This document shows positions 3,222 to 35,247 of a DNA stretch of 35,247 nt, piece after piece (position 1 is the first letter of the stretch; every line of letters starts with the position of its first letter). This stretch comes from a virus (Duplodnaviria; Heunggongvirae; Uroviricota; Caudoviricetes), in IMG/VR virus record IMGVR_UViG_2703719355_000021; one strand, given 5' to 3'. Below the pieces are notes generated by a model, which had not been told where the DNA came from, did not search any database, and worked only from the letters and a program-made list of their open reading frames with translations. The position numbers were made by a program, and so were the translations under genes.

Positions 3222-3733
3222 TGGCTGTGCCAAAACATCTTCGCTTTTTTACGCTGTTTGTGGATGGTGAAAACGAAGTGGGTAAGGTGACGTCCGTCAC
3301 TCTACCTAAGCTGACGCGCAAAACCGACAGCTACCGGGGTGGTGGCATGATGGGTGCGGTAAGTATTGATCTCGGTCTGGACGACTCCGCGCTTGATGCG
3401 AGCTTTGTCATGGGGGGCGCAGTTCGTGAGCTGTTCCTTAAGTATGGCGGCACGATTGACGGCACGCTGCTGCGTTTTGCGGGTGAATACTACACCGATG
3501 CAGAAAGCGACCTGTATGAAGTCGAAATGCGCGGACGTGTGACGGAAATTGATATGGGGGAAGCCAAACAGGGCGAAGCCACATCACACACTTACGCTAT
3601 TAAAAACACCTACTACAAGCTGAGTGTTAACGATCGCCCATTGTGGGAGATTGACCTGCTGAACTTCATTTACCGGAAGGACGGCAAGGACATTGTGCCC
3701 GATCGCATCCGTTCCGCGCTTGGGCTTGGCTGA
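3221..3733 (+). CDS. FII: tail tube protein gpFII
   Basis: 170 aa immediately after the sheath gene; P2 FII-like. Confidence 0.92.
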   Translation: MAVPKHLRFFTLFVDGENEVGKVTSVTLPKLTRKTDSYRGGGMMGAVSIDLGLDDSALDASFVMGGAVRELFLKYGGTIDGTLLRFAGEYYTDAESDLYEVEMRGRVTEIDMGEAKQGEATSHTYAIKNTYYKLSVNDRPLWEIDLLNFIYRKDGKDIVPDRIRSALGLG

Positions 3734-7631: not shown

Positions 7632-7668
7632 AACCGCTAATGGTCAGATTAGCGGTTATTTTGTTTTC
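7632..7668. terminator. bidirectional intrinsic terminator between convergent U and invertase genes
   Basis: aaccgctaat-ggtcag-attagcggtt perfect 10 bp stem followed by attttgtttt; it sits between the U stop and the invertase stop. Confidence 0.6.
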
Positions 7669-8243
7669 TGACTCTTCTCTATTGTTCCGCTTGATTCTCC
7701 TGCGGGGTGGTAACGATAAATCGTCGATGTACCAATGCCGTAAATTATTGCCAGTTGTTTTCTGTCGTGACCGTTTTTAATCAGCCTTGCTATTTGCTCA
7801 TGCTGTTCTTTTGTCAGCTTCGGGCGACGTCCGCCTGTGCGCCCCCGTGCGCGCGCTGCTGCCAGTCCGGCCAGTGTACGTTCAACGATTAATTCACGTT
7901 CCATTTCAGCCAGGGCACCCATAACGTGGAAGAAAAAACGCCCCATTGGAGAAGATGTATCTATGCTGTCGGTCAGACTGCGAAAATTAATCCCTCGCTC
8001 CTGTAGTTCCCCGACGAGAGAAATCAGATGTTTCATGCTTCGCCCGAGGCGATCCAGTTTCCAGACAACCAGCGTGTCACCTTTTTGAAGGCGCTTTAAA
8101 GCGCGTTTTAATCCCGGTCGGTCTGTCTTTGTCCCGCTTAATTTATCTTCAAATATTTGTTCACATCCTGCACAAACAAGAGCGTTTCGTTGCAGGTCTG
8201 TATTCTGGTCATTTGTTGATACCCTTACATAGCCAATCAGCAC
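7656..8243 (-). CDS. Gin/Pin/Hin-family serine DNA invertase
   Basis: Near-identical in pattern to Mu Gin (LIGYVRVSTNDQNTDLQRNALVCAGCEQIFEDKLSGT...); catalytic Ser in VRVSTNDQ; C-terminal HTH. Start taken as GTG at 8243 (GGGAGA ribosome-binding site); the track begins at a TTG at 8261. Confidence 0.92.
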   Translation of the reverse strand: MLIGYVRVSTNDQNTDLQRNALVCAGCEQIFEDKLSGTKTDRPGLKRALKRLQKGDTLVVWKLDRLGRSMKHLISLVGELQERGINFRSLTDSIDTSSPMGRFFFHVMGALAEMERELIVERTLAGLAAARARGRTGGRRPKLTKEQHEQIARLIKNGHDRKQLAIIYGIGTSTIYRYHPAGESSGTIEKSQKTK

Positions 8244-8314
8244 GCTGAATCTCCCGTCCAAAAGCGTAAATCATGCCATGCAGGTCAGAAACGGCCATTA
8301 TCTAAAACCTCGGT

Positions 8315-9262
8315 TTGCAGGAAACGATAAATCAGGCTTCAGGCGCATTGCAGAAAAACCAGAACGGCGCAGATATTCCAGGAAAAGATACCTTCACAAA
8401 AAATATTGGTGCATGTCGCGCTTTTCACAGTTCTATTAGTACAGGTGCAGGGAACTGGACGACGGCACAATTGATTGAATGGCTGGATTCTCAAGGGGCA
8501 TTCAATCACCCATACTGGATGTGCAAATGTTCATGGTCATACGGCAATAATAAAATTATTACCGATACTGGCTGTGGAACTATTCATCTTGCAGGTTGCG
8601 TTATTGAGGTTATGGGTAATAAAGGTGCCATGACCATCCGTGTAACCACCCCGAGCACTTCCAGCGGTGGCGGAACTACTAATGCACAATTTACTTATAT
8701 AAACCATGGCGCAGATTACGCCCCAGGCTGGCGGCGCGACTACAGCACAAAAAACCAGCAACCTGCATTTGCTTTAGGGCAAACAGGAAGCAGGGTTGCA
8801 AATGATAAAGCTGTTGGCTGGAACTGGAATAGCGGCGTTTATGATGCAGATATCAGTGGCGCATCGACATTAATCCTCCACTTCAATATGAATGCGGGGA
8901 GTTGCCCTGCTGTACAGTTCCGCGTGAATTATAAGAACGGCGGTATCTTTTATCGTTCAGCGCGTGATGGTTATGGCTTTGAAGCTGACTGGTCAGAGTT
9001 TTACACCACAACCCGCAAACCCTCTGCGGGGGATGTTGGTGCATATACGCAGGCAGAATGTAACTCAAGGTTTATTACAGGTATTCGCCTTGGCGGTCTG
9101 TCATCTGTTCAGACATGGAATGGTCCCGGCTGGTCTGACAGGTCAGGTTATGTCGTTACGGGTTCAGTTAACGGAAACCGTGATGAATTAATTGATACAA
9201 CACAGGCAAGGCCAATTCAGTATTGCATTAATGGGACGTGGTATAACGCGGGGAGTATTTAA
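8315..9262 (+). CDS. alternative (currently unexpressed) tail-fibre C-terminal variable segment
   Basis: The ORF begins inside the crossover site with ...LQET, the same residues found in gene H at the other site ([11 protein letters not shown]). It has no start codon of its own, so it would be fused to the H constant region after inversion. Confidence 0.8.
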   Translation: MQETINQASGALQKNQNGADIPGKDTFTKNIGACRAFHSSISTGAGNWTTAQLIEWLDSQGAFNHPYWMCKCSWSYGNNKIITDTGCGTIHLAGCVIEVMGNKGAMTIRVTTPSTSSGGGTTNAQFTYINHGADYAPGWRRDYSTKNQQPAFALGQTGSRVANDKAVGWNWNSGVYDADISGASTLILHFNMNAGSCPAVQFRVNYKNGGIFYRSARDGYGFEADWSEFYTTTRKPSAGDVGAYTQAECNSRFITGIRLGGLSSVQTWNGPGWSDRSGYVVTGSVNGNRDELIDTTQARPIQYCINGTWYNAGSI

Positions 9263-9264
9263 CG

Positions 9265-9798
9265 ATGATGCACTTAAAAAACATTACTGCTGGCAACCCT
9301 AAAACAAAAGAGCAATACCAGCTAACAAAGCAATTTAACATCAAATGGCTTTATTCAGATGATGGAAAAAACTGGTATGAGGAACAAAAGAATTTCCAGC
9401 CAGACACTTTGAAAATGGTCTATGACCATAACGGCGTTATTATTTGTATTGAAAAGGATGTTTCAGCAATTAATCCAGAAGGCGCAAGCGTCGTTGAGGT
9501 TCCTGATATTACAGCAAATCGCCGGGCTGATATTTCGGGGAAATGGATGTTCAAAGATGGCGTAGTGATAAAGCGAACTTACACCGAGGAAGAGCAGAGG
9601 CAACAAGCGGAAAATGAAAAGCAAAGCCTGTTGCAACTTGTCAGGGATAAAACCCAGCTATGGGACTCACAGCTACGGCTGGGCATCATTTCCGACGAGA
9701 ATAAACAAAAATTAACCGAGTGGATGCTCTATGCGCAGAAAGTCGAATCCACAGACACCTCCAGCCTGCCAGTAACGTTTCCCGAACAACCTGAATGA
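9265..9798 (+). CDS. tail fibre assembly protein (alternative copy)
   Basis: 177 aa, N-terminus MMHLKNITAGNPKT...[13 protein letters not shown] paralogous to the minus-strand copy at 9827-10354. Confidence 0.85.
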   Translation: MMHLKNITAGNPKTKEQYQLTKQFNIKWLYSDDGKNWYEEQKNFQPDTLKMVYDHNGVIICIEKDVSAINPEGASVVEVPDITANRRADISGKWMFKDGVVIKRTYTEEEQRQQAENEKQSLLQLVRDKTQLWDSQLRLGIISDENKQKLTEWMLYAQKVESTDTSSLPVTFPEQPE

Positions 9799-9802
9799 GA
9801 CA

Positions 9803-9822
9803 AGGCCCGATATCGGGCCTTA
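9803..9822. terminator. bidirectional hairpin between the convergent fibre-assembly genes
   Basis: aaggcccgatatcgggcctt perfect palindrome followed by a T-run on the plus strand. Confidence 0.55.
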
Positions 9823-9826
9823 ATTT

Positions 9827-10354
9827 TTATTCAGGCTTTTGTGGCCATTCAGGATTTGCCGTATCCACACGGCTGACCAGAACACTGTAGCGTTCCCATG
9901 ACTCCAGTCGTGCGCGTTCCTCATCCGTCGCCATATTCAGCCTGACGGCGCGTTCCAGTGGCTGAATAACGCTTTCTGCTTCGGAAATTAACGCGGCCTT
10001 TTGTGATTCGGCCTGTTGTTGCAGTTCCTGTTCTGTATATTCCCTCTTTACTACTTTACCATCCAGAAACATCCATTTTCCGTTATTGTCTGCGCGACGA
10101 TTTGCCGTAATATCAGGAACTTCAACTATGCTTAGCCCTTCAGGATTAATAGTTGAAACGTCTTTACTGACAGCAACGATGATGTTGTTCTCATCGTAAG
10201 CAATTTTTATGGTGTCTGGCTGAAAATTCTTTTGTTCCTCATACCAGTTCTTGCCATCTTCACAAAAGAGCCATACCACGCCCGCTTTTTTAGTTAGCTG
10301 GTATTGTTCCGGTGTTTTCGGATTCCCGGCCTTAATATTTTTCAGGTGCATCAT
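9827..10354 (-). CDS. G: tail fibre assembly protein gpG (expressed orientation)
   Basis: [14 protein letters not shown]... paralogue of 9265-9798; start taken at the tandem Met 1 nt after the H stop. Confidence 0.85.
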
Positions 10355-10355
10355 C

Positions 10356-12401
10356 TTAAACACTCCCCACGTTGTACCATATTCCCCCAATCAATTTCTG
10401 AATTGGCCTTCTGGCAACAGTGTCGACAATATCATCCGCATTGCTGTTCATTGCGGCTGTTAAAACATAACCTGACGCATCGCCAAAGCCGTAGTCGCGC
10501 CATACGTTTTTAAGTTCAATGCTGCCAAGACGAATATCCCGAACGACATGATTATGCAGCCATGTGCTTAACCAGTTGTTTTCCCACACTGAACCATAAA
10601 TATCGCCACTAGACGCGACTTGCGCACCACTTCCCAGAGTGAAACCGCCATCCCTTTTAAAGATGAAGTCACCACCACCATCTGAACCGTTATTAATATG
10701 AACACCATCACCACCGTTATCTTTCCACAAAAACATACGAATACTTCCGTCTTCGTTGGCGAATGTAATGTGGTGGCGGTAATTACTTTTTAATCTAAAA
10801 TTGCTGCCATTAGATTCAATATCTTTATAAATATGTAATCCTAACTCATCAATATGTCCTATGCGCGAACCATTTGAAAAGATGCTAATAAAACCATCTC
10901 CATCTTGCCTAAATCCGGTGTCGTTATCTCCCAGAACAATGGAGTTTTCACCCAGTGCGTTATCAGTAGCACCAATAGCTAGACCTCCTTCAATTTTGGC
11001 CCCGTGGCTGACAGATATAGCACCTGTTCTCAGATTTATAGCGAATGGCCTTAATGGGCCGATATCACCGTTTTCGCCTTGTCCTTCAGCCGTCGGAATG
11101 AAATGAAGAAAATCTTCTGAACGACGGAAAATAAGACCGAAGGCATCATTGAAAATTCGCAGCGCATTCACCGTGCCAATTTTCAGTTCTCCGGTCATTT
11201 TATCACCGGAACGCTGAACGGCGTTACCAGCCTTGTTTACCGTTTCCTGCAAACCGAGGTATTCGATAACGGCGGCAACGGTCGATTTCGCAAGAATATC
11301 CCGCCCGACTTTTGTCAGAGTTGCCAAGCTGGCGACATCATTCCCCGTAAAATACGGAAACCTGTCTGCCGCAGTAGCAAGCCCGGCCAGCGCCGTCAGG
11401 GTGGCATCTTTCGGTTGCTTACCCGCAAGCGCGTTAGTCATGGTGGTCGCAAAATTCGGGTCGTTGCCCAACGCCGCAGCCAGCTCGTTTAGCGTATTCA
11501 GTGCGTCAGGCGACGAGTCCACGAGGGCAGCGATCGCAGCCATAACGAAAGCCGTGCTTGCGATTTGGGTATTATTCGTTCCCTGTCGCGCAGTTGGCGT
11601 TGTTGGCGTTCCGGTCAACGCAGGACTGTTTAAGGGCGCTTTCTTGTTCGTTTCATCCATTACCGCCTTAACCGCTTTCGATGTCGCGGCCAGTGTTTCA
11701 GACGTGCTGTTGGTTGCACTGCTGAGCTGGACTATCCCTTTTCGTGCCGTCGTGGCGTCCTGAGCGGTATATTTTCCGTTAGCCAGGTCATACGCGGCCT
11801 TAACCGCTTTCGGCGTTGCGGCCAGCGTTTCAGAATCGCTGTTAGTGGCGCTACTGAGTTGAACAAAGCCTTTTGCGGTCAGCGAGGCATCCGGGTGACG
11901 TCGTGACTGTTCATGCTCTTTCAGTTTGTCATCCACGTAATCCACTGTGGCCATCACCATGGTGTTATCCACGGTAAGCGCCACGCTGGCAGTGCTGGAT
12001 ACGGTCAGAATGGTGCGAAATGTTTGTGCACGTCCGGACCCCTCGGCAACGGTTGGCTTGTAACTTTCGGCAGTATTGCCCACCGCGATTAAATCGCCGT
12101 GCTCATCAAATACACCAATTTCCCGGATCCAGAATCCGCCCGTTTCAGGAGGAATAACCAGCTCCGCAATAATGCGGTTCTGATGTGTTGCGTCCAGGAT
12201 GACGCGATTAACAGTGTGTCGCCACACCTCATGCACCAGACGGGTCTGCTTACTGTCTGGTGTGGGCAACGTGCCGCCACCGTCGCCCACGGCCATATGA
12301 GTCAGGCGGACAGGCTTACCATCTGGCGCGGCTGCCTGAGCTAATTTTTTTGCACCCGTATCGGTGATAACGGTTTTAAATTTTCGTGTTGTGGTACTCA
12401 T
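10356..12401 (-). CDS. H: tail fibre protein gpH (constant N-terminal part plus currently joined variable C-terminal part)
   Basis: 681 aa; N-terminus [24 protein letters not shown]..., internal repeats (ATNSxSETLAATxKAVKA twice); the crossover site lies in-frame at about 11244-11269. Confidence 0.9.
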
Positions 12402-23610: not shown

Positions 23611-23636
23611 CGCGCTTCGCTTGTCTGCTGCTTCGC

Positions 23637-23661
23637 CGGGGCATAAAAAATTTATGCCCCG
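23637..23661. terminator. perfect 11 bp palindromic hairpin downstream of portal gene Q
   Basis: cggggcataaa-aaa-tttatgccccg about 27 bp after the Q stop; no clear T-run, so it may be a terminator or a protein-binding site. Confidence 0.45.
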
Positions 23662-24034
23662 ACTCTCCAGCTCCTGTATCAATCAGATAATTTCACGACG
23701 CTTTTCTGCTTATTGCCATCATCGGCGGTCAGACTCTTACGCAATCCCACCGCATTGACTGCATGTTCTCGCCGCCTCAGTGCGATTTTGACGGCCTTAC
23801 CTTTCACCCCATCAAATCAGAATCCCTCACGTATTCTTCACGCTCAGCGTGAGAAATACAGCCATTCTGTTGTGTCGCTGCGACATCGTTCAGGGGATGC
23901 TATTTACCCCCTGAAACGCGGGCTGTTCCCCCGTCACCTGCGCGCAGAAAAAGCGCGTTTTTTTGTGCACGCACGGATCCTTGACGGATCCAGCCGCCAC
24001 GCGGGCCGGAAGGGCAAAAAGTCGTTCAAAAAAA

Positions 24035-24061
24035 TTGTGCAAATTTGTGCACTATTGTGCA
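24035..24061. repeat. three TTGTGCA direct repeats at exact 10 bp phasing
   Basis: attgtgcaa / atttgtgcac / tattgtgcag; a fourth copy about 70 bp upstream (about 23963); lies in the Q-to-accessory gap where cos is expected. Confidence 0.5.
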
Positions 24062-24101
24062 GCAGGGCGATGCGCGATTATCGCCCTGGTTTGAGAGGAA
24101 A

Positions 24102-24641
24102 TCAGGTGTTCTTTTTACCTTCTGTCAGTGGGCATAACCATCCACTATTTACATCACTTAGCTGATGCGTTCTTTCCTCGTGCTTCTCCTGCCACAATGC
24201 TTTTCCGCCAGCCTTTATGATGGCTCTTTCAACATCCCGCTCGTATCGCAAGGGCTGAAATACGTCATTAATGAAATATTCGCTTATGTCCGGAAGCGAT
24301 ACTGCAAAATTATTTGTTTGTTGCGCCGTCCTGCTATGCAGCAAAGCGGCATACTTTAATGCGTCCTGTGCTTTCTGGAATTTAAGTGCATAGTCAGTGG
24401 CGATTTTTTCCAGTTCAGCGATGCGTTTTTTTGCTGTTTCCAGTTCATCCAGCAGTGCCAGCATGTCTTCCGGTCCAGCCAGAATTCTGAAGGTGTTGAT
24501 CGCGTCAATATCCACACCGTAATCTTTAAGTTCCTGTTCGCTTAACAAATCATCATCAACTGGCAATATTAACAGGCGTTCCATTGCCGGAATTGCACGT
24601 TCTGCTGCCATTTGTAGTGCCTGATAGTCAATTTTGCTCAC
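24102..24641 (-). CDS. Ead/Ea22-like family protein (paralogue 2)
   Basis: MSKIDYQALQMAAERA... N-terminus and ALLDELETAKKRIAELE coiled-coil motif typical of Ea22-like proteins; start overlaps the stop of the upstream paralogue (ATGA). Confidence 0.8.
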   Translation of the reverse strand: MSKIDYQALQMAAERAIPAMERLLILPVDDDLLSEQELKDYGVDIDAINTFRILAGPEDMLALLDELETAKKRIAELEKIATDYALKFQKAQDALKYAALLHSRTAQQTNNFAVSLPDISEYFINDVFQPLRYERDVERAIIKAGGKALWQEKHEERTHQLSDVNSGWLCPLTEGKKNT

Positions 24642-25237
24642 TGGCTGCCTCCTTTGCGAAGCTCTGCGGCGAAATATACAGCTGCGGAAACAATAGCTGC
24701 ATGTCGGTATTCATCATCAGAAAATAAAGAATCTCCCTTAAGTGCATTGACGATACTCTGATGATTTTTTGCCAGCATCTCCACGCCCTGCGCCCGTACT
24801 TCAGCCAGAAAAGCGTCGGTGGCTGGGGTTTGTGGCATTCCTCCGTCTGTTGCGCAGATATACGCGTCAGATATTTCATCCTGCTCTCCATCAAATACAT
24901 AGCAACTGCCCCTGATAAACAGCTTCATTGCGGCATTCTCCGCTGCCAGCTCCGTGAAATTAGCCTCCAGCTCTGCAATGCGTTTGCTTTGGGCTTCTCG
25001 TTCATCCAACAGAGCCTGCACTACTTCAGGGTTGAAAGCTGCGATATAACGAGCGTTGTTCTCTGCGTTTTTCTGTTCGTCGAATCCAGGCCAGTCGACA
25101 ATATCTCCGTGATGATTATCTCCTGGTGTGTGCACGGCGTACGTGCCGTATTTGCCCGGCGAAATAAATGCGACCCATTCGCCCTGTGTTGCCTGTTTTG
25201 CTAACTCACGCAGTGCCTGATAGTTGATTTCGCTCAT
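24638..25237 (-). CDS. Ead/Ea22-like family protein (paralogue 1)
   Basis: MSEINYQALRELAKQATQGEW... and ALLDEREAQSKRIAELE; AAGGAG ribosome-binding site. Confidence 0.8.
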   Translation of the reverse strand: MSEINYQALRELAKQATQGEWVAFISPGKYGTYAVHTPGDNHHGDIVDWPGFDEQKNAENNARYIAAFNPEVVQALLDEREAQSKRIAELEANFTELAAENAAMKLFIRGSCYVFDGEQDEISDAYICATDGGMPQTPATDAFLAEVRAQGVEMLAKNHQSIVNALKGDSLFSDDEYRHAAIVSAAVYFAAELRKGGSQ

Positions 25238-25300: not shown

Positions 25301-25612
25301 TTATTCGGGAAATAACGCCCGGATATTTCCGGCCATCTGACTGGTTATCTGTGCGGTTGGTGCTGGCTGTGGCACGGGGCGTTCTGTCCTGGTTTGTGTC
25401 ACTGATAACGCCTCGCCATCAGCCCATGCAGCCAGTCGGTAAGCCTCTGCCGGATTCATTTTCAGAAGTGCCAGCCCGGCCAGAAAAGCCACGCGTTGGC
25501 TGCTTTTGCGGGCTTCTGGTGTAAGGCTGTCCAGCCAGGCGCATGCTTCGCTTTCGTTCTTGACGGCGGCGGGCTTCAGATAGAAACTTATCCGTCTGGT
25601 TGGTGTCGTCAT
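25301..25612 (-). CDS. parR: ParR-like centromere-binding partition adaptor
   Basis: Internal start MTTPTRRISFYLKPAAV...LDSLTPEARKSSQRVAFLAGLALL...IRALFPE matches recalled plasmid R1 ParR (RRTIAFKLNPDV...LDSIPQGERSRLNRAALTAGLALY...LRSLFPK); AAGGAG ribosome-binding site embedded in the parM 3' end. Confidence 0.75.
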   Translation of the reverse strand: MTTPTRRISFYLKPAAVKNESEACAWLDSLTPEARKSSQRVAFLAGLALLKMNPAEAYRLAAWADGEALSVTQTRTERPVPQPAPTAQITSQMAGNIRALFPE

Positions 25613-25616
25613 TGGT

Positions 25617-26576
25617 TTACTCCTTGTCCATTGCGTACAGCCCATTAACCAGAGCAAACTGTGGCACCCCGTCCGCGATGAAAGTCGCATTAACTCCGCA
25701 GGCTTCGCGGATAGCGGGTGCCACAATCTCCGCCCCGCCACCGACAACCATCACCCGCCCGTAACCCGAAAAACCCGCCAGTGCGCGGATTACGCGTTGT
25801 TTCAGTGTTTCTTCCTTTTCACGAATAACCGCCATCAGGCTGGCGTAATGCGCGTCATTGTGGATGTGCTGGCGCAGCCAGGCTTCATCATGGCGATGTT
25901 CGATAATGGTATTGGCGATGTGGTGACTGGTACGCATACCGTTAGTGGCCATCACCGACAGTACGGCATCGGCCATCAGGGAAACGCCTACGTGTGGATC
26001 GCAAAACACCTGGCTGATACCTGCCAGTTGTCCCTGAACCTTTGCCACATCCAGCGTGGTTCCGCCTAAATCCACAATCAGCAGGGATTCAAACGGACTC
26101 ATGTCAGCCAGTGCTTTAAAACCAGCCGGTATGGATTCAGGCATAACCCGTACGTTACGGATAGTGAATGCTTTTCCGTTCTGGTACGCCACCGGGCGCA
26201 TGACGTTTGCTTTTTTGCGGTTGATGTTGGCCATGTCCGGCTGTGCGTTTGTGTCGAAATACTCGCTCAGTGGCAGGGTGACAACCACATCCACCTCCTG
26301 TGGCGTGATGCCTGATTTGACCAGCGCGTGATGAATGGCAATGACATTCACATCGCTGTACTGGTATTGCGTGTCGGTCGTCTGGACAAAGCGATCGCTG
26401 ACCGGATCAAAACCATAGCGCACGCCATCAAGCATGTAGTTCGCGGGCTGCGTGCCACCGAACGGCGCAGACCATTCCGACTTGAAGCTGTTCGGGCTGA
26501 TGGCGTTGCGGCGTTCGCCGTTCTCAGTCCATGCCAGCTTGATGTTGGTGGAGCCGTCGTCGATACAAATTCTCAT
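25617..26576 (-). CDS. parM: ParM/StbA-family actin-like segregation ATPase
   Basis: MRICIDDGSTNIKLAW...ISPNSFKSEW...YQYSDVNVIAIHHAL...VDVVVTLPL closely parallels R1 ParM (MLVFIDDGSTNIKLQW...ISPNSFKREW...WQYSDVNVVAVHHAL...); AAGGAAAA ribosome-binding site. Confidence 0.9.
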   Translation of the reverse strand: MRICIDDGSTNIKLAWTENGERRNAISPNSFKSEWSAPFGGTQPANYMLDGVRYGFDPVSDRFVQTTDTQYQYSDVNVIAIHHALVKSGITPQEVDVVVTLPLSEYFDTNAQPDMANINRKKANVMRPVAYQNGKAFTIRNVRVMPESIPAGFKALADMSPFESLLIVDLGGTTLDVAKVQGQLAGISQVFCDPHVGVSLMADAVLSVMATNGMRTSHHIANTIIEHRHDEAWLRQHIHNDAHYASLMAVIREKEETLKQRVIRALAGFSGYGRVMVVGGGAEIVAPAIREACGVNATFIADGVPQFALVNGLYAMDKE

Positions 26577-26605
26577 CTCGATTTTCCTTATGTTGATTAA
26601 TTAAT

Positions 26606-26720
26606 CGTTTACGGGATTCTGAAATCCCGTTTTTGCCTGTTTTGTGCGCGCTTCACATATCGCTGCGCGTTTTTTGCTCATTTACGGGATTTGTGAATCC
26701 CGTTTCTGTCTGTTTTTTGT
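26606..26720. repeat. two ~40 bp direct repeats, each with a palindrome (acgggatt-N5-aatcccgt), upstream of parM: candidate parC centromere/operator
   Basis: cgtttacgggattctgaaatcccgtttttgcctgtttt (about 26606) and catttacgggatttgtgaatcccgtttctgtctgtttt (about 26679), 73 bp apart; the second lies within the last codons of gene A. Confidence 0.5.
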
Positions 26721-29475
26721 TTCCACTGGTCAGGCCACCCCGCAGCAGGTCTGCTTTGCGGCGGGCGCGTTCAGTGGTTTCACTGATTCTCTGTGCGTGC
26801 TCTGCGTCGCGGATGGCGCGCAGCATGTCAGAAAGCACGGTAACGGGTGTTTTCATGGTGTTCTGGTCCTGCTGAAGTGTGGATGCCAGGCGTGCGGCGG
26901 CTTCAGGGTCTGATGCCCCCAGCTGTGCCAGATAGCTGGCGACCGGGTTATGGCGGATCTCCGTGCTGCTTACGCCATGATTACGGCTCAGGCGCTGCCA
27001 GAGCTGCGTGATTCGGCTGTCCGGGCGGGTATCCGGTTTGCGTACAATTTCAAATCCCTGCGGTGCAATGATGCTGCCGTCAACGTACAGACTGCCGCCC
27101 CGTAACAGGTGCTGCATCTGTTGTTCACCGATATGCAGGCCGAGAGATTCAGCAGACTCTCGCCATTCTTTAGCGAGTAATTCGTGGTTATCAGGCAAAG
27201 GCCGCTGCTGTTTGCGGCTCTGTGTCCAGCTCTGCATTTCATCACTGCTGTTTTTTGCCTGTTTGTCACGAAGCGAACGCATCAGCGCCCGGCGTTCGTG
27301 CCGTTTCAGTGAGCGCATCCATTCGTTCACTTCAACGCCGTCAGGGAGCTGCGGCCACGGTGCTGGCCGTTCTTCCGGCTGTTCTGTCCCGTTGTTGTCC
27401 GTTTCCTGTACACGGGGACAGTTATTGCCACGAGTCCAAGGGGCGGCAGGGCCGCCCTGAAGGTCAAAACCATTTTCGCGGGCGCTGTCTTCCGCTTCCG
27501 GTTTGCGTCTTACCAGCTTCCAGTTATCCGGATGCGTGCACACACGGGAGGATTCCCCGATGAGTGGTGACCAGATCCCGTAAATCTGTACGCTCTGTTC
27601 GCCGTAATCGTTCAGCTCATCGGCGAGGTCGTAGGCGGTGCGAATCAGGTAGTCTTTGCGTGGAACAAGTACGCCGCCCTGTTTCTCTATGTAGGTGGCA
27701 AAACATCCGGCATCAGCGGCGGCAAGAACCGCATCCATTGCGTCATCCTTCAGCCGTTGCGGGCCTTCCGGGTTGCGTGCCATCTGGCTGGCAAGGCGGC
27801 GCAGTTCACGCCATACCTGGCGGGAGGGGATGCCAAAGAACTGGAACTGGCGGACCCGGTGAAGGCGCGCCCAGCCGATGGCGCGTTCCACGCTCTCGGC
27901 CATTGATTTTCCGGTTTCGTGGTCAACGCGTGGCTTGCCCGTTTTCGGGTCGATGCCATCCACGGCGCGGCTGTCCAGGTTTTTCCCGATGTAGGTGGCA
28001 ATGTAGCTGGTTGGCGTGCCTTTTGAGCCGTCTACATACTCCGCCTTAAAGCGCGGAGTTATGTCATCGCCCAGCTCGTGACGATCTTCCTGAATGGCAA
28101 TATCGCGGGTGTGGGACACAATGGTGTCGATTTCTTCCGGATGAGCAAAGACCATCATATGCCAGTGCACGGTGCCGTCATGGTGAGGCTCCACCGTGCG
28201 GATGCCATACCAGCGCAGGCCGTCGCGGTTCAGTTTCTTGCGGACCGCCGCAAAAAACGTGTTAACCAGGTAATCGCTGGAGTCGCGCATGGTGGCCCCG
28301 TTCCATTTGGGGTTCGGATGACCGTTCTCCGTTGTTGCGTGGTATTTTGACGGGCAGGTGACGGTCAGAAACACCGCTCTGTCGCCACGGGCTTCGGCCA
28401 GAAGTTCCAGTCCCTTCATGGTGGCCATCATTTCTGCTTTACGGTGAACCGGGTTACTTACTCCCGCGTAATACACCGTCTCGAGATCAATCGTGAACCC
28501 GTCTTCATTTTCCAGCATGAAACTTTTCAGGAAATCGCGTGTTTTCTCGCGCTGTGCGCGAAACTCGCTTAACGCGTCCTGGCTCAGATAGGGTGATGTT
28601 TTTCTGGAAACCAGACAGGCGGCGCGGAGTTGTTCTTCTCTCCACTCGCAACGTAACAGCCACAGTTTGCGTTTCCACCATTCCGCACAGGTCAGGCGAA
28701 GGATTGCGCCCGGCAGCAGCTCCGTGTCCGGTTCGTTCCTCCGGTCTTTATCTGTTGTCAGTGCGTCATAATGTGGAGGCATGATGTGCAGGTGTAACGC
28801 CATGCGGGCCAGCATCTGATACGCCTTCAGCGTTACATCCATGGTCAGTTCGCCATCGGTCGCGCCAAAGCCATCGCAGAGTTTTTCGAAGGTGCTGCTG
28901 AACATCGCCGCCGTCATGGTGGCCAGCGTCTGTATCTGGTGTTTGTTGAGCTGCGGCAGGTAAAGCAAATCGTCCAGGCGTTCGCGTCCGGCAAGGGAGC
29001 GATAACCCGGTGTCAGCCAGTGTCCGTCAGTGCGATCCAGACGTTCGAATATTTTGCGCAGGGTTCCGCGTGCATAGCGTTCCGCCTGCCAGCTCTTTTT
29101 GCCTTTCCGGCGATCGGCTTCCTGTTTTTTGCGCAGGAAGGAGAGGTGGCGAATAAGCGGATCGCGCAGATAGGACGGCAGCAGGCGCAGCGAGGCCATG
29201 GCTTCATCCACCGCGCCGCGTGCCTGTTTTCTGGCGTCTCCTGCCAGTGTGATGGTTTTGTCCTGTTTTTCCTGTGCGTCCAGGCTTTTATTAATCAGGT
29301 TGCCCAGCGGCGTGGCGGAGAACGCCGCATCAGCCATTTCCTTGCGGCGCTCGTTCTCTGCCCGGTAGGCATCCAGCCAGGAGGAAAGCGCGGATTCAGG
29401 AGCGGGGATCCCCGTTCCTTCACGCCCCACTGCGTGGCGCGGTTGTTGCCAGTCCCTGATGTACTCTGCCGTCAT
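26653..29475 (-). CDS. A: replication initiation protein gpA (rolling-circle endonuclease family) with extended C-terminal region
   Basis: 940 aa; HHDGTVHWHMMVF-type HUH-like motif and P2/186 A-like central region; last gene of the early operon; about 180 aa longer than P2 A. Confidence 0.88.
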   Translation of the reverse strand: MTAEYIRDWQQPRHAVGREGTGIPAPESALSSWLDAYRAENERRKEMADAAFSATPLGNLINKSLDAQEKQDKTITLAGDARKQARGAVDEAMASLRLLPSYLRDPLIRHLSFLRKKQEADRRKGKKSWQAERYARGTLRKIFERLDRTDGHWLTPGYRSLAGRERLDDLLYLPQLNKHQIQTLATMTAAMFSSTFEKLCDGFGATDGELTMDVTLKAYQMLARMALHLHIMPPHYDALTTDKDRRNEPDTELLPGAILRLTCAEWWKRKLWLLRCEWREEQLRAACLVSRKTSPYLSQDALSEFRAQREKTRDFLKSFMLENEDGFTIDLETVYYAGVSNPVHRKAEMMATMKGLELLAEARGDRAVFLTVTCPSKYHATTENGHPNPKWNGATMRDSSDYLVNTFFAAVRKKLNRDGLRWYGIRTVEPHHDGTVHWHMMVFAHPEEIDTIVSHTRDIAIQEDRHELGDDITPRFKAEYVDGSKGTPTSYIATYIGKNLDSRAVDGIDPKTGKPRVDHETGKSMAESVERAIGWARLHRVRQFQFFGIPSRQVWRELRRLASQMARNPEGPQRLKDDAMDAVLAAADAGCFATYIEKQGGVLVPRKDYLIRTAYDLADELNDYGEQSVQIYGIWSPLIGESSRVCTHPDNWKLVRRKPEAEDSARENGFDLQGGPAAPWTRGNNCPRVQETDNNGTEQPEERPAPWPQLPDGVEVNEWMRSLKRHERRALMRSLRDKQAKNSSDEMQSWTQSRKQQRPLPDNHELLAKEWRESAESLGLHIGEQQMQHLLRGGSLYVDGSIIAPQGFEIVRKPDTRPDSRITQLWQRLSRNHGVSSTEIRHNPVASYLAQLGASDPEAAARLASTLQQDQNTMKTPVTVLSDMLRAIRDAEHAQRISETTERARRKADLLRGGLTSGNKKQTETGFTNPVNEQKTRSDM

Positions 29476-29481
29476 AGTGAT

Positions 29482-29847
29482 TTACTTCGTCATGCCATTC
29501 AGGGTGTCGCGGCAGACGGTAGCCAGCCGCTGAATTTCCAGCACGGTGTCTTCTGTGTCGGCATAGTGATGTGTGATGCGGATGCTGTCGGCAATCACAT
29601 CGACGATCGCAGAGGATGGGCGCTGGTAAATGCCAATAACGGACGGGGTGCCACCTTCAATACGGTAAAGCCTGTAATTTCCCTCGTGGCTGTCAATCAT
29701 GTAACGACCATCAATAACAATCTTTCCGTCAGCGAGCTGCGGTACAGGCAGGGATTTCAGGTACATGTCATAACGTTCACGCACGCGAACGGCAAGATCA
29801 CGCTCTGTGTTGAGCAGGTATTCAAGAAAGTCGTTGGCGAGAATCAT
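29482..29847 (-). CDS. hypothetical early-operon protein (121 aa)
   Basis: Track ORF immediately upstream of A on the same strand; no family recognised. Confidence 0.55.
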   Translation of the reverse strand: MILANDFLEYLLNTERDLAVRVRERYDMYLKSLPVPQLADGKIVIDGRYMIDSHEGNYRLYRIEGGTPSVIGIYQRPSSAIVDVIADSIRITHHYADTEDTVLEIQRLATVCRDTLNGMTK

Positions 29848-29919
29848 TGCGGCAATCCTCTTGTTACAGATGTGCGAAGGCCTCCCGCCGCAAGGTGCAG
29901 GAAAGGCCCGGAACAGGAA

Positions 29920-30150
29920 TTAATGGAGTTTGTTTTGCTGCTGGATGAGCTGCTGAAGCTCGCGCAGATCATCCGCCAGATAGCTGAAAACAGAGGCGGA
30001 ATAAATGTTTGATAGTGCGTGGCTGCGCTCATGCAGCATATTGATGTGCATGATTTGCGCGACGCGTGATGCGCGGGAAAGTCTGCGGTTGATTTCAGTC
30101 TGGATGTGACGACGCTCCGCGATAGCGCGGTGTGGTTTGCGGTTTGCCAT
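29920..30150 (-). CDS. hypothetical small basic protein (76 aa)
   Basis: AAGGGG ribosome-binding site; preceded by a structured 320 bp leader; Arg-rich N-terminus. Confidence 0.55.
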   Translation of the reverse strand: MANRKPHRAIAERRHIQTEINRRLSRASRVAQIMHINMLHERSHALSNIYSASVFSYLADDLRELQQLIQQQNKLH

Positions 30151-30329
30151 GGTGTGGCCCCTTGTGTAGTAAGTTGTGAAAACTCACCATCCAGAGCTGC
30201 GAAACTGTGGGTGGCGAGACGTACGAGGTTCGCAGTACCGGCTACACAAGAACCCGGCCCGACCGAAGTCGGCCCCGTACGCCCCGCCATAATTCTGACG
30301 CGAAAAAAACGTGGCAATACAGTACGCAC

Positions 30330-30350
30330 AAAAAAACCGCTGGCGCGGTT
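30330..30350 (-). terminator. intrinsic terminator inside the early operon (minus-strand sense)
   Basis: Minus-sense aACCGCgccaGCGGT followed by seven T; flanked by complementary cgcaca / tgtgcg. Confidence 0.55.
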
Positions 30351-30470
30351 GTGCGCTTGTGTAGTCAGCAGGCTGCGAAACCCGGCACCCGTTTTGTGAG
30401 GTGCAGCGGAAATGTAACCTGACTGATTGCGGCATGGCAAGCGGTTTTTTTGTGTGTGCATTATGATCAC

Positions 30471-33466: not shown

Positions 33467-33793
33467 TCATGCAGCAAAATTAAGGAAGCCTAATCCCAAA
33501 TCTTCCGCCAGCTTCTTGGCTTTCTTAAGCCAGTGATTGCGCCAATCTTTACGCTCAGGAGGAAGCTGTTTCGTTGCGTCATAGACCATTTCGAGCCACT
33601 CATTCCAAAGGATGAGAAGACGGCGCGAACTCCCTTCCTCGCCTAAAACCTCGCGCTCAGTAGTTAGAGGGATGAGTCGACGCTCTACCAACTTTCTTAC
33701 GGCTGATTCGGTCTTACCTGTGCGGCGGGAAAACTCATCGACGGTGATGGGGTCTGGGATCTTAAACAATGCCCTCAATAGTTCTTCATTCAT
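33467..33793 (-). CDS. Cox/Apl-like small HTH regulator (putative excisionase / switch protein)
   Basis: First gene of the leftward early operon, divergent from C; internal start MNEELLRALFKIPDPITVDEFSRRTGKTESAVRKLVERRLIP (HTH); GGGAG ribosome-binding site. Assignment is by position. Confidence 0.6.
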   Translation of the reverse strand: MNEELLRALFKIPDPITVDEFSRRTGKTESAVRKLVERRLIPLTTEREVLGEEGSSRRLLILWNEWLEMVYDATKQLPPERKDWRNHWLKKAKKLAEDLGLGFLNFAA

Positions 33794-33888
33794 GTGATAA
33801 TCTCCCTGTTTGGGGTATTTCTTGCGACGGATGCCCCAAATCAAACTCATTTGTATAAACATTAATACAGACGTTGGAGAATTGCAAC

Positions 33889-34191
33889 ATGCGTATGACT
33901 ATTGGAGAGCGCATAAAAATCATGCGTGAAAGCGAGAGACTTACTAGCCTCCCGGATACAGCAAAAATGCTTGGTTTAAACCGTGATGCTCTGTGGAGAT
34001 ATGAAAGCGGTAAAACTATCCCTAATGCTGAAGTAATTGAGCAAATACTAAACAACCCCAGATTTGAGAAATATGCGTTGTGGTTTATGACTGGGAAAAT
34101 TGCGCCTGAATCCGGGCAGATAGCTCCGGCTCTCGCACACTATGGGCAAGAGCCAACGGACTTACCCCCATCCGAAAGGAAAATTGGCTAA
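33889..34191 (+). CDS. C: P2-type immunity repressor C
   Basis: TIGERIKIMRESERL...YESGKTIP...FEKYALWFMTGKIAPESGQIAPALAHYGQ aligns with P2 C (TISEKIVLMRKSEYL...YESGRSTP...FTKYTLWFMTNQIAPESGQIAPALAHFGQ); start at the ATG with a GGAGA ribosome-binding site. Confidence 0.88.
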   Translation: MRMTIGERIKIMRESERLTSLPDTAKMLGLNRDALWRYESGKTIPNAEVIEQILNNPRFEKYALWFMTGKIAPESGQIAPALAHYGQEPTDLPPSERKIG

Positions 34192-34257
34192 CCCTTTATT
34201 ATTCTTACGTTTTACAAACTGGAAATGTCTTTCCTCGTTTCACCGGAGGGCTTGCCA

Positions 34258-35247
34258 ATGGCAATTAAAGCGCTCGATGGTGGACGGTATAAAGTGGATG
34301 TTAGACCGCGTGGCCGAAGTGGACGTCGGATTCAGCGGATTTTTAAGAAAAAGGCAGATGCAGTGGCCTTTGAGCGTTATGTTCTCAGCCACATGCACGA
34401 TAAGGAATGGCTTGAAAAGCCAACAGAGCAACGTCATCTCTCAGATCTGCTTCCGTTATGGTGGGAATTGGGTGGACGCAATAAGCCATATGCTAACGGC
34501 GTTCTAACCAGGTTGAAAAAAATCATCAAAGAAATGAATGATCCAAGGGTTAGCCAGATTAATGCTCGTTTCATGGCCGCTTATCGAAGCTCCCGTTTAT
34601 CCTTGGGAGTAAAAGAGTCTACTGTTCGGCGTGATGAGTCGGATCTCGGAGGAATGTTTACACTCCTGGCAAATGCCGGGGAATTTCACGGAGAAAATCC
34701 GCTCCGCGCCCTCCCCTCTTTGAAACGAAAATCACCCGAAATGACGTATCTCACCACGGAAGAAATCGCCAAATTACTGGATGCAGTAAGCGGTGATGCC
34801 CGGCGGATTACGCTACTTTGTCTCAGTACTGGGGCGAGATGGGGAGAAGCGAAAAATCTGCGCGCGGAACACATCATCAATAATCGCGTGACGTTTAACA
34901 AAACTAAAAACGGAAAAGTTCGAATTATTCCTGTCTCTGATGAAGTTGTTAGTGAGATCAAAACAAAGAAATCCGGCCTTTTGTTTGACGTCAATTATGA
35001 GGAATATCGCAAGGTGCTTCGCAGTGTTAAGCCAGACCTACCAAAAGGACAGGCTGTACATGTTCTACGCCATACCTTTGCTGCTCACTTTATGATTAAT
35101 GGAGGAAATATACTTACGCTCCAGCGAATTATGGGGCACGCTACGATCCAGCAAACTATGACCTATGCGCACCTCGCTCCTGATTTCCTCCAGGATGCAA
35201 TTTCACTTAATCCGTTAAAAGGAGGCATCCACATTTCATCCACATAA
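34258..35247 (+). CDS. int: tyrosine integrase (P2 Int family)
   Basis: MAIKALDGGRYKVDVRPRGRSGRRIQR...LCLSTGARWGEA...HVLRHTFAAHFMINGGNILTLQRIMGH...YAHLAPDFLQDAISLNPL closely parallels P2 Int; GGAGGG ribosome-binding site. The window ends at its stop codon. Confidence 0.95.
   Translation: MAIKALDGGRYKVDVRPRGRSGRRIQRIFKKKADAVAFERYVLSHMHDKEWLEKPTEQRHLSDLLPLWWELGGRNKPYANGVLTRLKKIIKEMNDPRVSQINARFMAAYRSSRLSLGVKESTVRRDESDLGGMFTLLANAGEFHGENPLRALPSLKRKSPEMTYLTTEEIAKLLDAVSGDARRITLLCLSTGARWGEAKNLRAEHIINNRVTFNKTKNGKVRIIPVSDEVVSEIKTKKSGLLFDVNYEEYRKVLRSVKPDLPKGQAVHVLRHTFAAHFMINGGNILTLQRIMGHATIQQTMTYAHLAPDFLQDAISLNPLKGGIHISST

Follow-up and report, generated by a model that had tools for sequence, protein, structure and literature searches.

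Organization of the parMR locus

The virus record IMGVR_UViG_2703719355_000021, a stretch of 35,247 nt that is referred to below as the window and from whose first letter all coordinates are counted, represents an entire P2-like prophage that belongs to the P88/Xuanwuvirus group and shares 95-98% identity with the phages in it. Immediately downstream of gene A, which encodes the replication protein gpA, the window carries parM and parR, two genes which, judged from sequence, form a genuine and well-formed type II (ParMRC-type) DNA segregation module, together with a pair of palindromic repeats that are candidates for its centromere (parC). All features of the locus lie on the minus strand:

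25301-25612 (-): parR, encoding an adaptor of 103 aa in which a hypervariable linker joins the predicted DNA-binding domain at the N-terminus to a conserved C-terminal tail
25617-26576 (-): parM, encoding a 319-aa actin-like segregation ATPase
26577-26604 (-): parM leader with the conserved element ATTAATCAA-N-ATAAGGAA, comprising a Shine-Dalgarno sequence and at most a weak -10-like element
26605-26646 (-): proximal candidate parC repeat, with the palindrome ACGGGATT-N4-AATCCCGT at 26611-26630
26678-26719 (-): distal candidate parC repeat, with the palindrome ACGGGATT-N4-AATCCCGT at 26684-26703, within the last codons of gene A
26653-29475 (-): gene A (gpA), encoding a 940-aa rolling-circle replication endonuclease (Pfam Phage_GPA, 1.4e-131), directly upstream of the cassette

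The parR gene starts with an ATG at 25612, 4 nt past the parM stop codon, and has an AAGGAG Shine-Dalgarno sequence of its own. A 148-aa open reading frame (ORF) beginning with TTG (25301-25747) was rejected as the parR product, being an artefact of the ORF listing that overlaps parM.

ParM and ParR

The first-pass annotation correctly identified this interval in a P2-like phage as a plasmid-type ParM/ParR module: the ParM signature peptides that it quoted are found in the translation of the 319-aa protein, and both proteins match the expected families in profile searches. ParM matches the Pfam StbA_N (1.2e-81) and ParM C-terminal (1.3e-68) domains, and aligns end to end (residues 2-316, E=1.5e-92) with the R1 ParM structures 1MWK and 4A62. 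It shares 46.5% identity with ParM of R1 and 52.5% with that of IncL/M plasmids, and keeps the phosphate-1 (DDGSTxIK), phosphate-2 (DLGGTTLD) and adenosine (GGGA) motifs. ParR belongs to PF10784 (Plasmid_stab_B, 5.6e-24); a search of the PDB with the single ParR sequence returned nothing meaningful, and a profile built from phage and plasmid ParRs matched the pB171 ParR structure (PDB 2JD3) at 9.9e-15. In NCBIfam, neither ParM nor ParR scored above the cut-off.

Comparison of 18 Escherichia-type ParR variants revealed conservation of residues 1-63 and of the final eight residues, N-I-x-x-(L/F/M)-F-P-x, whereas the stretch between them (residues 64-95) is hypervariable. In R1, the C-terminal tail of ParR is the peptide that binds ParM, and the LFP of the phage protein aligns with this extreme tail (KKNAMKLIN). 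The ParR identity that had first been proposed from an N-terminal and an LFP motif stands, but the R1 counterpart of the LFP motif is the tail and not the internal LRSLFP. Retention of the predicted DNA-binding domain and of the putative ParM-binding tail, with a linker free to vary, is exactly the pattern expected of a working adaptor.

The parM gene is under strong purifying selection, with dN/dS values of 0.00-0.145 over 21 pairs (~0.07), comparable to those of gpA in like-for-like pairs (0.08-0.11). The protein database does contain truncated ParM clusters (188-261 aa, several hundred members each), as might be expected if the cassette were a decaying relic of past plasmid-phage recombination with no present function. 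This interpretation is strongly disfavoured, to the point of being scarcely credible, by the low dN/dS, by the retention of at least 80% of parM in 98% of the matching Escherichia coli records, by the persistence of the cassette across genera at 53-62% identity, and by a ParR whose functional ends are conserved while its linker drifts.

Candidate centromere

The two repeats upstream of parM are 42 nt long, 81% identical and 73 bp apart, and in each of them two 8-nt arms separated by a 4-nt spacer form a perfect palindrome. The first-pass annotation had described two palindromic direct repeats upstream of the genes; their existence and their position relative to the minus-strand genes hold, with the corrections that the spacer is 4 nt and not 5, that the full repeat length is 42 nt, and that the distal copy lies inside the coding end of gene A, whose stop codon occupies 26653-26655. 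The palindrome is absent elsewhere in the 35-kb window: a search allowing at most 3 mismatches gave these 2 matches against 0.2 expected, and only 1 of 100 shuffles gave 2 or more.

Each palindrome contains a GGG-N10-CCC core, and in the window and in P88 these cores start at -125 and -52 from the parM ATG. Among 13 close relatives, the arms GGGATTT and AATCC of the proximal site are invariant, with variation in the spacer and the outermost bases, and at the distal site CGGGA and AATCCC are invariant, with one arm position being T or C; this comparison is weak on its own, given sequences that are 96% identical overall. In more distant P2-like prophages, the core is again present exactly twice upstream of parM, at -128/-55 in Hafnia, where the distal-equivalent site falls within a different ORF, and at -131/-59 in Plesiomonas, against a background elsewhere of about one core per 2-5 kb.

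On the plus strand, both palindromes were called terminator-like, each giving an 8-bp stem with a T-rich run after it, so that the repeats might be RNA hairpins or intrinsic terminators that stop antisense transcription into gene A, with ParR acting elsewhere or not at all. However, the diverged Hafnia and Plesiomonas sites retain their geometry, their 72-73 bp spacing and their offset from parM while having lost most hairpin complementarity (e.g., CGGGACAACAAAAACCCG, TGGGATTGAGGAAACCCA). Because geometry and spacing outlast stem complementarity, protein binding is favoured over an RNA hairpin, and the terminator reading was rejected as very improbable. In addition, a stronger plus-strand terminator is already present after the portal gene at 23940, and two copies seven helical turns apart ahead of an operon that encodes a predicted ribbon-helix-helix adaptor represent the expected layout of an operator.

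The 73-bp spacing corresponds to about seven helical turns, which would place both sites on the same face of the DNA. Serratia and Enterobacter versions of the cassette carry a different paired inverted repeat (GGGAAC..ATAGAAAAAT) that resembles the repeats of IncL/M plasmids, which is consistent with co-divergence of the sites with ParR. The palindromic repeats represent the best candidate for the centromere/operator, which would be minimal and bipartite, with two conserved phased sites against ten in R1.

Expression

A position-weighted sigma-70 scan of the region upstream of parM gave a best score of 4.6 against a shuffled median of 5.4, whereas in the control centromeres of R1 (8.9) and IncL/M (10.9) it detected the promoters that lie within them. 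A ParR-autoregulated promoter within parC, which type II systems have, was accordingly not found by this consensus scan. The leader sequence of parM is conserved in the window, Hafnia and Plesiomonas, and at most a weak TTCAGA-16-ATTAAT element overlaps the proximal palindrome. On the coding strand, no terminator-like site was detected from 30253 to 25332, and hence none between gpA and parM. Because parMR has no detectable promoter of its own and no terminator intervenes, it is probably transcribed together with gpA and would form the last part of the early replication operon.

Further upstream, Rfam searches identified a C4 antisense RNA at 30207-30294 (-, 83 bits) and an isrK Hfq-binding small RNA at 30330-30404 (-, 64 bits). 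Each RNA has a promoter-like and a terminator-like site, and both are located upstream of gene A and of an ORF of the Ash family (29844-30470). Their arrangement suggests an antisense control resembling P1 immI or Gifsy-1 isrK ahead of the replication/parMR unit.

Distribution and linkage to gpA

The cassette was found in 1308 of 5426 complete E. coli genomes (~24%), at 1454 chromosomal places versus 2 on plasmids; for parM considered separately, 1441 of 1443 places are chromosomal and 2 are on plasmids. It is 95-99% identical in about 1300 genomes, with as many as three copies in some of them. Among the E. coli genomes, 1279 retain at least 80% of parM and 1321 have the P88-type gpA, and the phage records that carry this gpA are the same as those that carry this ParM (14 of 14). 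The cassette is therefore tied to the gpA replication gene and does not behave as exchangeable cargo.

Relatives of ParM occur in P2-like prophages of Hafnia (62% identity), Plesiomonas (62%), Serratia (57-58%) and Enterobacter (53%), in all of which the order gpA, ParM, ParR (PF10784), variable genes, portal/terminase is maintained, and this shared order indicates that the link between gpA and parMR is old. The next relatives, at 48-50% identity, belong to an integrated plasmid and an ICE-like element. In the plasmid collection, the best ParM from a true plasmid is ~52% identical and none falls between 60 and 95%, and for this reason the phage ParM lineage is considered distinct. A scan of genome contigs with ParM returned three near-identical loci, the diverged relatives having been obtained by protein search and contig look-ups. 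One contig of 226 kb labelled 'Vagococcus sp. WN89Y' (NZ_JBQPOM010000071.1) carries an E. coli-type prophage region with a ParM 97% identical to that of the window, and is most likely a contamination or a mislabelled assembly. A match to a Shigella boydii 'plasmid' is uninformative, since the record is a linear fragment of a phage interrupted by IS1 insertions.

The first-pass annotation regarded an actin-type segregation module as unexpected in an integrating P2-like phage, an assessment that overrated its rarity. About 24% of complete E. coli genomes carry the cassette in P88-like prophages, almost always on the chromosome, the NCBI annotation pipeline PGAP always labels its products 'plasmid segregation protein ParM' and 'plasmid partitioning/stability family protein', and Rousset et al. 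2022 reported a putative partition system in about a quarter of P2-like phages (PMC9122126). The AlpACS system of the integrated prophage CGP3 provides a further precedent (PMC4446434). The paper on Citrobacter phage phiSM names the gene merely as a 'fitness' factor. What the present comparison adds to the published presence of the cassette is its linkage to gpA, its occupation of the same slot across genera, the purifying selection, the conserved positions of the paired sites in three lineages, and the lack of a detected promoter or terminator separating parMR from gpA.

Prophage setting and the neighbouring hotspot

The cassette sits between gpA and the portal gene, the portal and terminase genes being on the opposite strand. 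The lysogeny genes of the prophage are:

34225-35247: tyrosine integrase
33874-34191: C-type repressor
33467-33862: Cox

The gpA-gpQ locus, which holds old/tin in P2, is a documented hotspot of accessory genes including many defence systems (PMC9122126). Downstream of parR, the window carries two tandem Ead/Ea22-like paralogues (24102-25237, -; 199 and 179 aa; Pfam 2e-25 and 8e-22), and the same variable slot is occupied by DUF4760 and an unknown gene in ST131, by HicAB in Serratia and by a KAP NTPase in Enterobacter. The parR gene itself is mosaic. The ST131/O157-type ParR (gene at positions 3241-3555 of its stretch, compared with 25301-25560 of the window, codons ~18-103) is just 55% identical to that of the window, in contrast to 98% identity for the neighbouring ParM and a proximal palindrome that shows no difference at all. 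Because of a recombination breakpoint inside parR, the ST131 and O157:H7 prophages match the window only from parR codon ~18 onward, and the left edge of the variable hotspot therefore falls inside parR.

This location in a hotspot, the differing downstream genes (Ead/Ea22-like, HicAB, KAP NTPase, DUF4760), the hypervariable ParR linker, the breakpoint inside parR and the presence of up to three copies per genome would all suit an exchangeable cargo gene set (moron) with an outward role, either in anti-phage defence or in incompatibility against plasmids and co-resident P2-like phages. However, the cassette itself does not vary in the way its neighbours do: all 14 phages with this gpA type have it, it is nearly identical in ~1300 genomes, and it occupies the same slot in distant genera. 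PADLOC returned no matches for the cassette or for the genes of the variable slot, and neither the variable presence nor the similarity to defence proteins that characterizes hotspot defence systems was observed. Moreover, the variants share an invariant proximal site and an invariant DNA-reading N-terminal part of ParR, the opposite of what incompatibility-driven diversification would produce. An outward cargo role is thus regarded as quite unlikely.

Elsewhere in the window, ~490 bp between the portal gene and the hotspot (23611-24101) are non-coding, which we take to be the position expected for the cos site of P2-like phages, and a strong plus-strand terminator (23940-23958) follows the portal operon. 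A serine DNA invertase gene (7656-8261, -; Resolvase 1.4e-50) lies alongside opposed tail-fibre and tail-fibre-assembly genes (ORFs 8315-10390), as in P88, and this region looks like an invertible host-range segment.

Proposed role of the cassette

From the homology, gene anatomy, conservation, selection and linkage described above, we infer DNA binding, filament formation, expression timing and a role for the cassette as follows. The N-terminal domain of ParR dimers, of the ribbon-helix-helix type, would recognize the two palindromes, and the C-terminal tail of ParR would capture the ends of ATP-dependent ParM filaments, which could then push or position the DNA molecules bearing the sites. 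ParM and ParR would be made together with gpA once infection or induction has switched on the early operon. In P2, rolling-circle replication driven by gpA yields monomeric double-stranded circles. Because parMR is apparently expressed with gpA, the likely substrate is the extrachromosomal circular phage genome, the form present at that stage, and the job of the cassette is likely to be to separate and spread these circles, for efficient replication and packaging and/or for inheritance of copies by both daughter cells before integration. We give a probability of roughly 0.5 to this reading, namely that the cassette is a type II segregation module that belongs to the P88/Xuanwuvirus replication module and moves extrachromosomal phage circles.

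Partition systems normally matter only to replicons that persist through cell divisions, a consideration that counts in favour of another scenario, in which P88-like phages use the cassette to maintain themselves as low-copy plasmids, either before integration or in place of it. Such a facultative plasmid lifestyle has been suggested by Rousset et al. 2022 (PMC9122126), and the P2-like Burkholderia phage KS14 is indeed a plasmid prophage (PMC3091744). In addition, NZ_CP148288.1, from an E. coli isolate from a cat, is a complete P88-like genome deposited as a 34,461-bp circular 'plasmid' with int, repressor and cox. However, this circle could equally be excised or induced phage DNA, and with 1441 of 1443 parM places chromosomal, the extrachromosomal maintenance that marks a phage-plasmid is not seen. 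The P88-like phages have a tyrosine integrase, and for initiating replication they encode just the rolling-circle gpA in the lytic operon, without a plasmid-type Rep, whereas KS14 has RepB plus ParA. A plasmid lifestyle as the purpose of the cassette is therefore judged unlikely, although it deserves more weight than the other alternatives considered here.

Several points weigh against the assignment of the cassette to the movement of replicating phage circles. A single lytic cycle proceeds without cell division and offers no obvious use for a partition machine. The two-site centromere is far smaller than that of R1 with its ten iterons, and the four ParR dimers that it could hold may be too few for a segrosome. 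The apparent absence of a promoter comes from one approach, a consensus scan, and the TTCAGA-16-ATTAAT element may be a weak, ParR-repressible promoter. The AF2 model of the ParR monomer was poor (pLDDT 53) and was not used. In a neighbour-joining tree, which carries no support values, the phage ParMs cluster beside the ParMs of IncL/M and IncFIA plasmids. Finally, no functional study was found in the literature on the cassette, P88, Xuanwuvirus or CP-933T.

With these points taken into account, a broader proposal can be advanced tentatively, with somewhat less confidence than the reading above: ParMRC may be a core working part of the replication machinery in a widespread P2-like lineage, a Gram-negative counterpart of AlpACS that separates or positions monomer circles during lytic growth, or equally sustains a transient plasmid phase before integration, through a minimal centromere of two sites, one of which would extend into the 3' end of gene A. 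Roughly one in four E. coli strains, among them members of the O157:H7 and ST131 lineages, has the cassette in a prophage, and it is under selection as strong as that on the phage replication gene. If it organizes phage DNA during replication, or supports a hidden plasmid phase, the role of bacterial actins in virus biology would be extended, and a very small, easily engineered centromere would be gained. The purpose of a plasmid-segregation motor in an integrating phage is an easily testable question, as P88 is inducible and genetically tractable (PMC5285337).

Comparison with known segregation systems

The phage cassette shares with the ParMRC (parA/stb) systems of R1 and R100 the order of sites, parM and parR, a ParM that is 46.5% identical over its full length with conserved actin-fold ATPase motifs, and a homologous ParR (PF10784) in which the beta-strand region at the N-terminus and the tail at the C-terminus correspond to those of R1. 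However, parC of R1 consists of ten 11-bp direct iterons flanking a recognizable promoter, whereas the phage has two 20-bp palindromes, one of them within a coding region, and no convincing promoter. The phage ParR is also shorter, lacking about 25 residues of the middle segment, and the host replicon is an integrating phage instead of a plasmid.

The closest ParMs of true plasmids are those of IncL/M (pCTXM360) and IncFIA, at ~52.5% identity. The upstream repeats of IncL/M are likewise 73 bp apart (1076-1178 of the examined pCTXM360 stretch), and contain a TTTTTCTAT motif similar to the sites found in the Serratia and Enterobacter phages, which hints at a centromere architecture common to IncL/M plasmids and P2-like phages. 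In contrast to the phage cassette, the IncL/M and IncFIA plasmids have longer ParRs (140-147 aa) and a clear promoter.

Among plasmid prophages, the P1-like Escherichia phage D6 encodes a ParM of the StbA/ParM type that is 48% identical to that of the phage cassette, and Burkholderia phage KS14, with a ParA-type system, demonstrates that a P2-like phage is able to live as a plasmid. Both are extrachromosomal and have plasmid-type replication functions, whereas P88-like phages have an integrase and are integrated in 1441 of 1443 cases.

The AlpACS system of the integrated Corynebacterium glutamicum prophage CGP3 is switched on early, and the excised circular phage DNA depends on it for efficient replication (PMC4446434). 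Its components AlpA, AlpC and alpS provide, as in the phage cassette, an actin-like filament protein, a DNA-binding adaptor and upstream sites within an integrated prophage (PMC4446434; PMC5539076). It differs in belonging to another actin-like family and a Gram-positive host, and the experimental support is that of AlpACS, the phage cassette being known from its sequence. By this analogy, AlpACS is the favoured functional model for the P88-type cassette, which would act in a comparable manner on the replicating phage genome.

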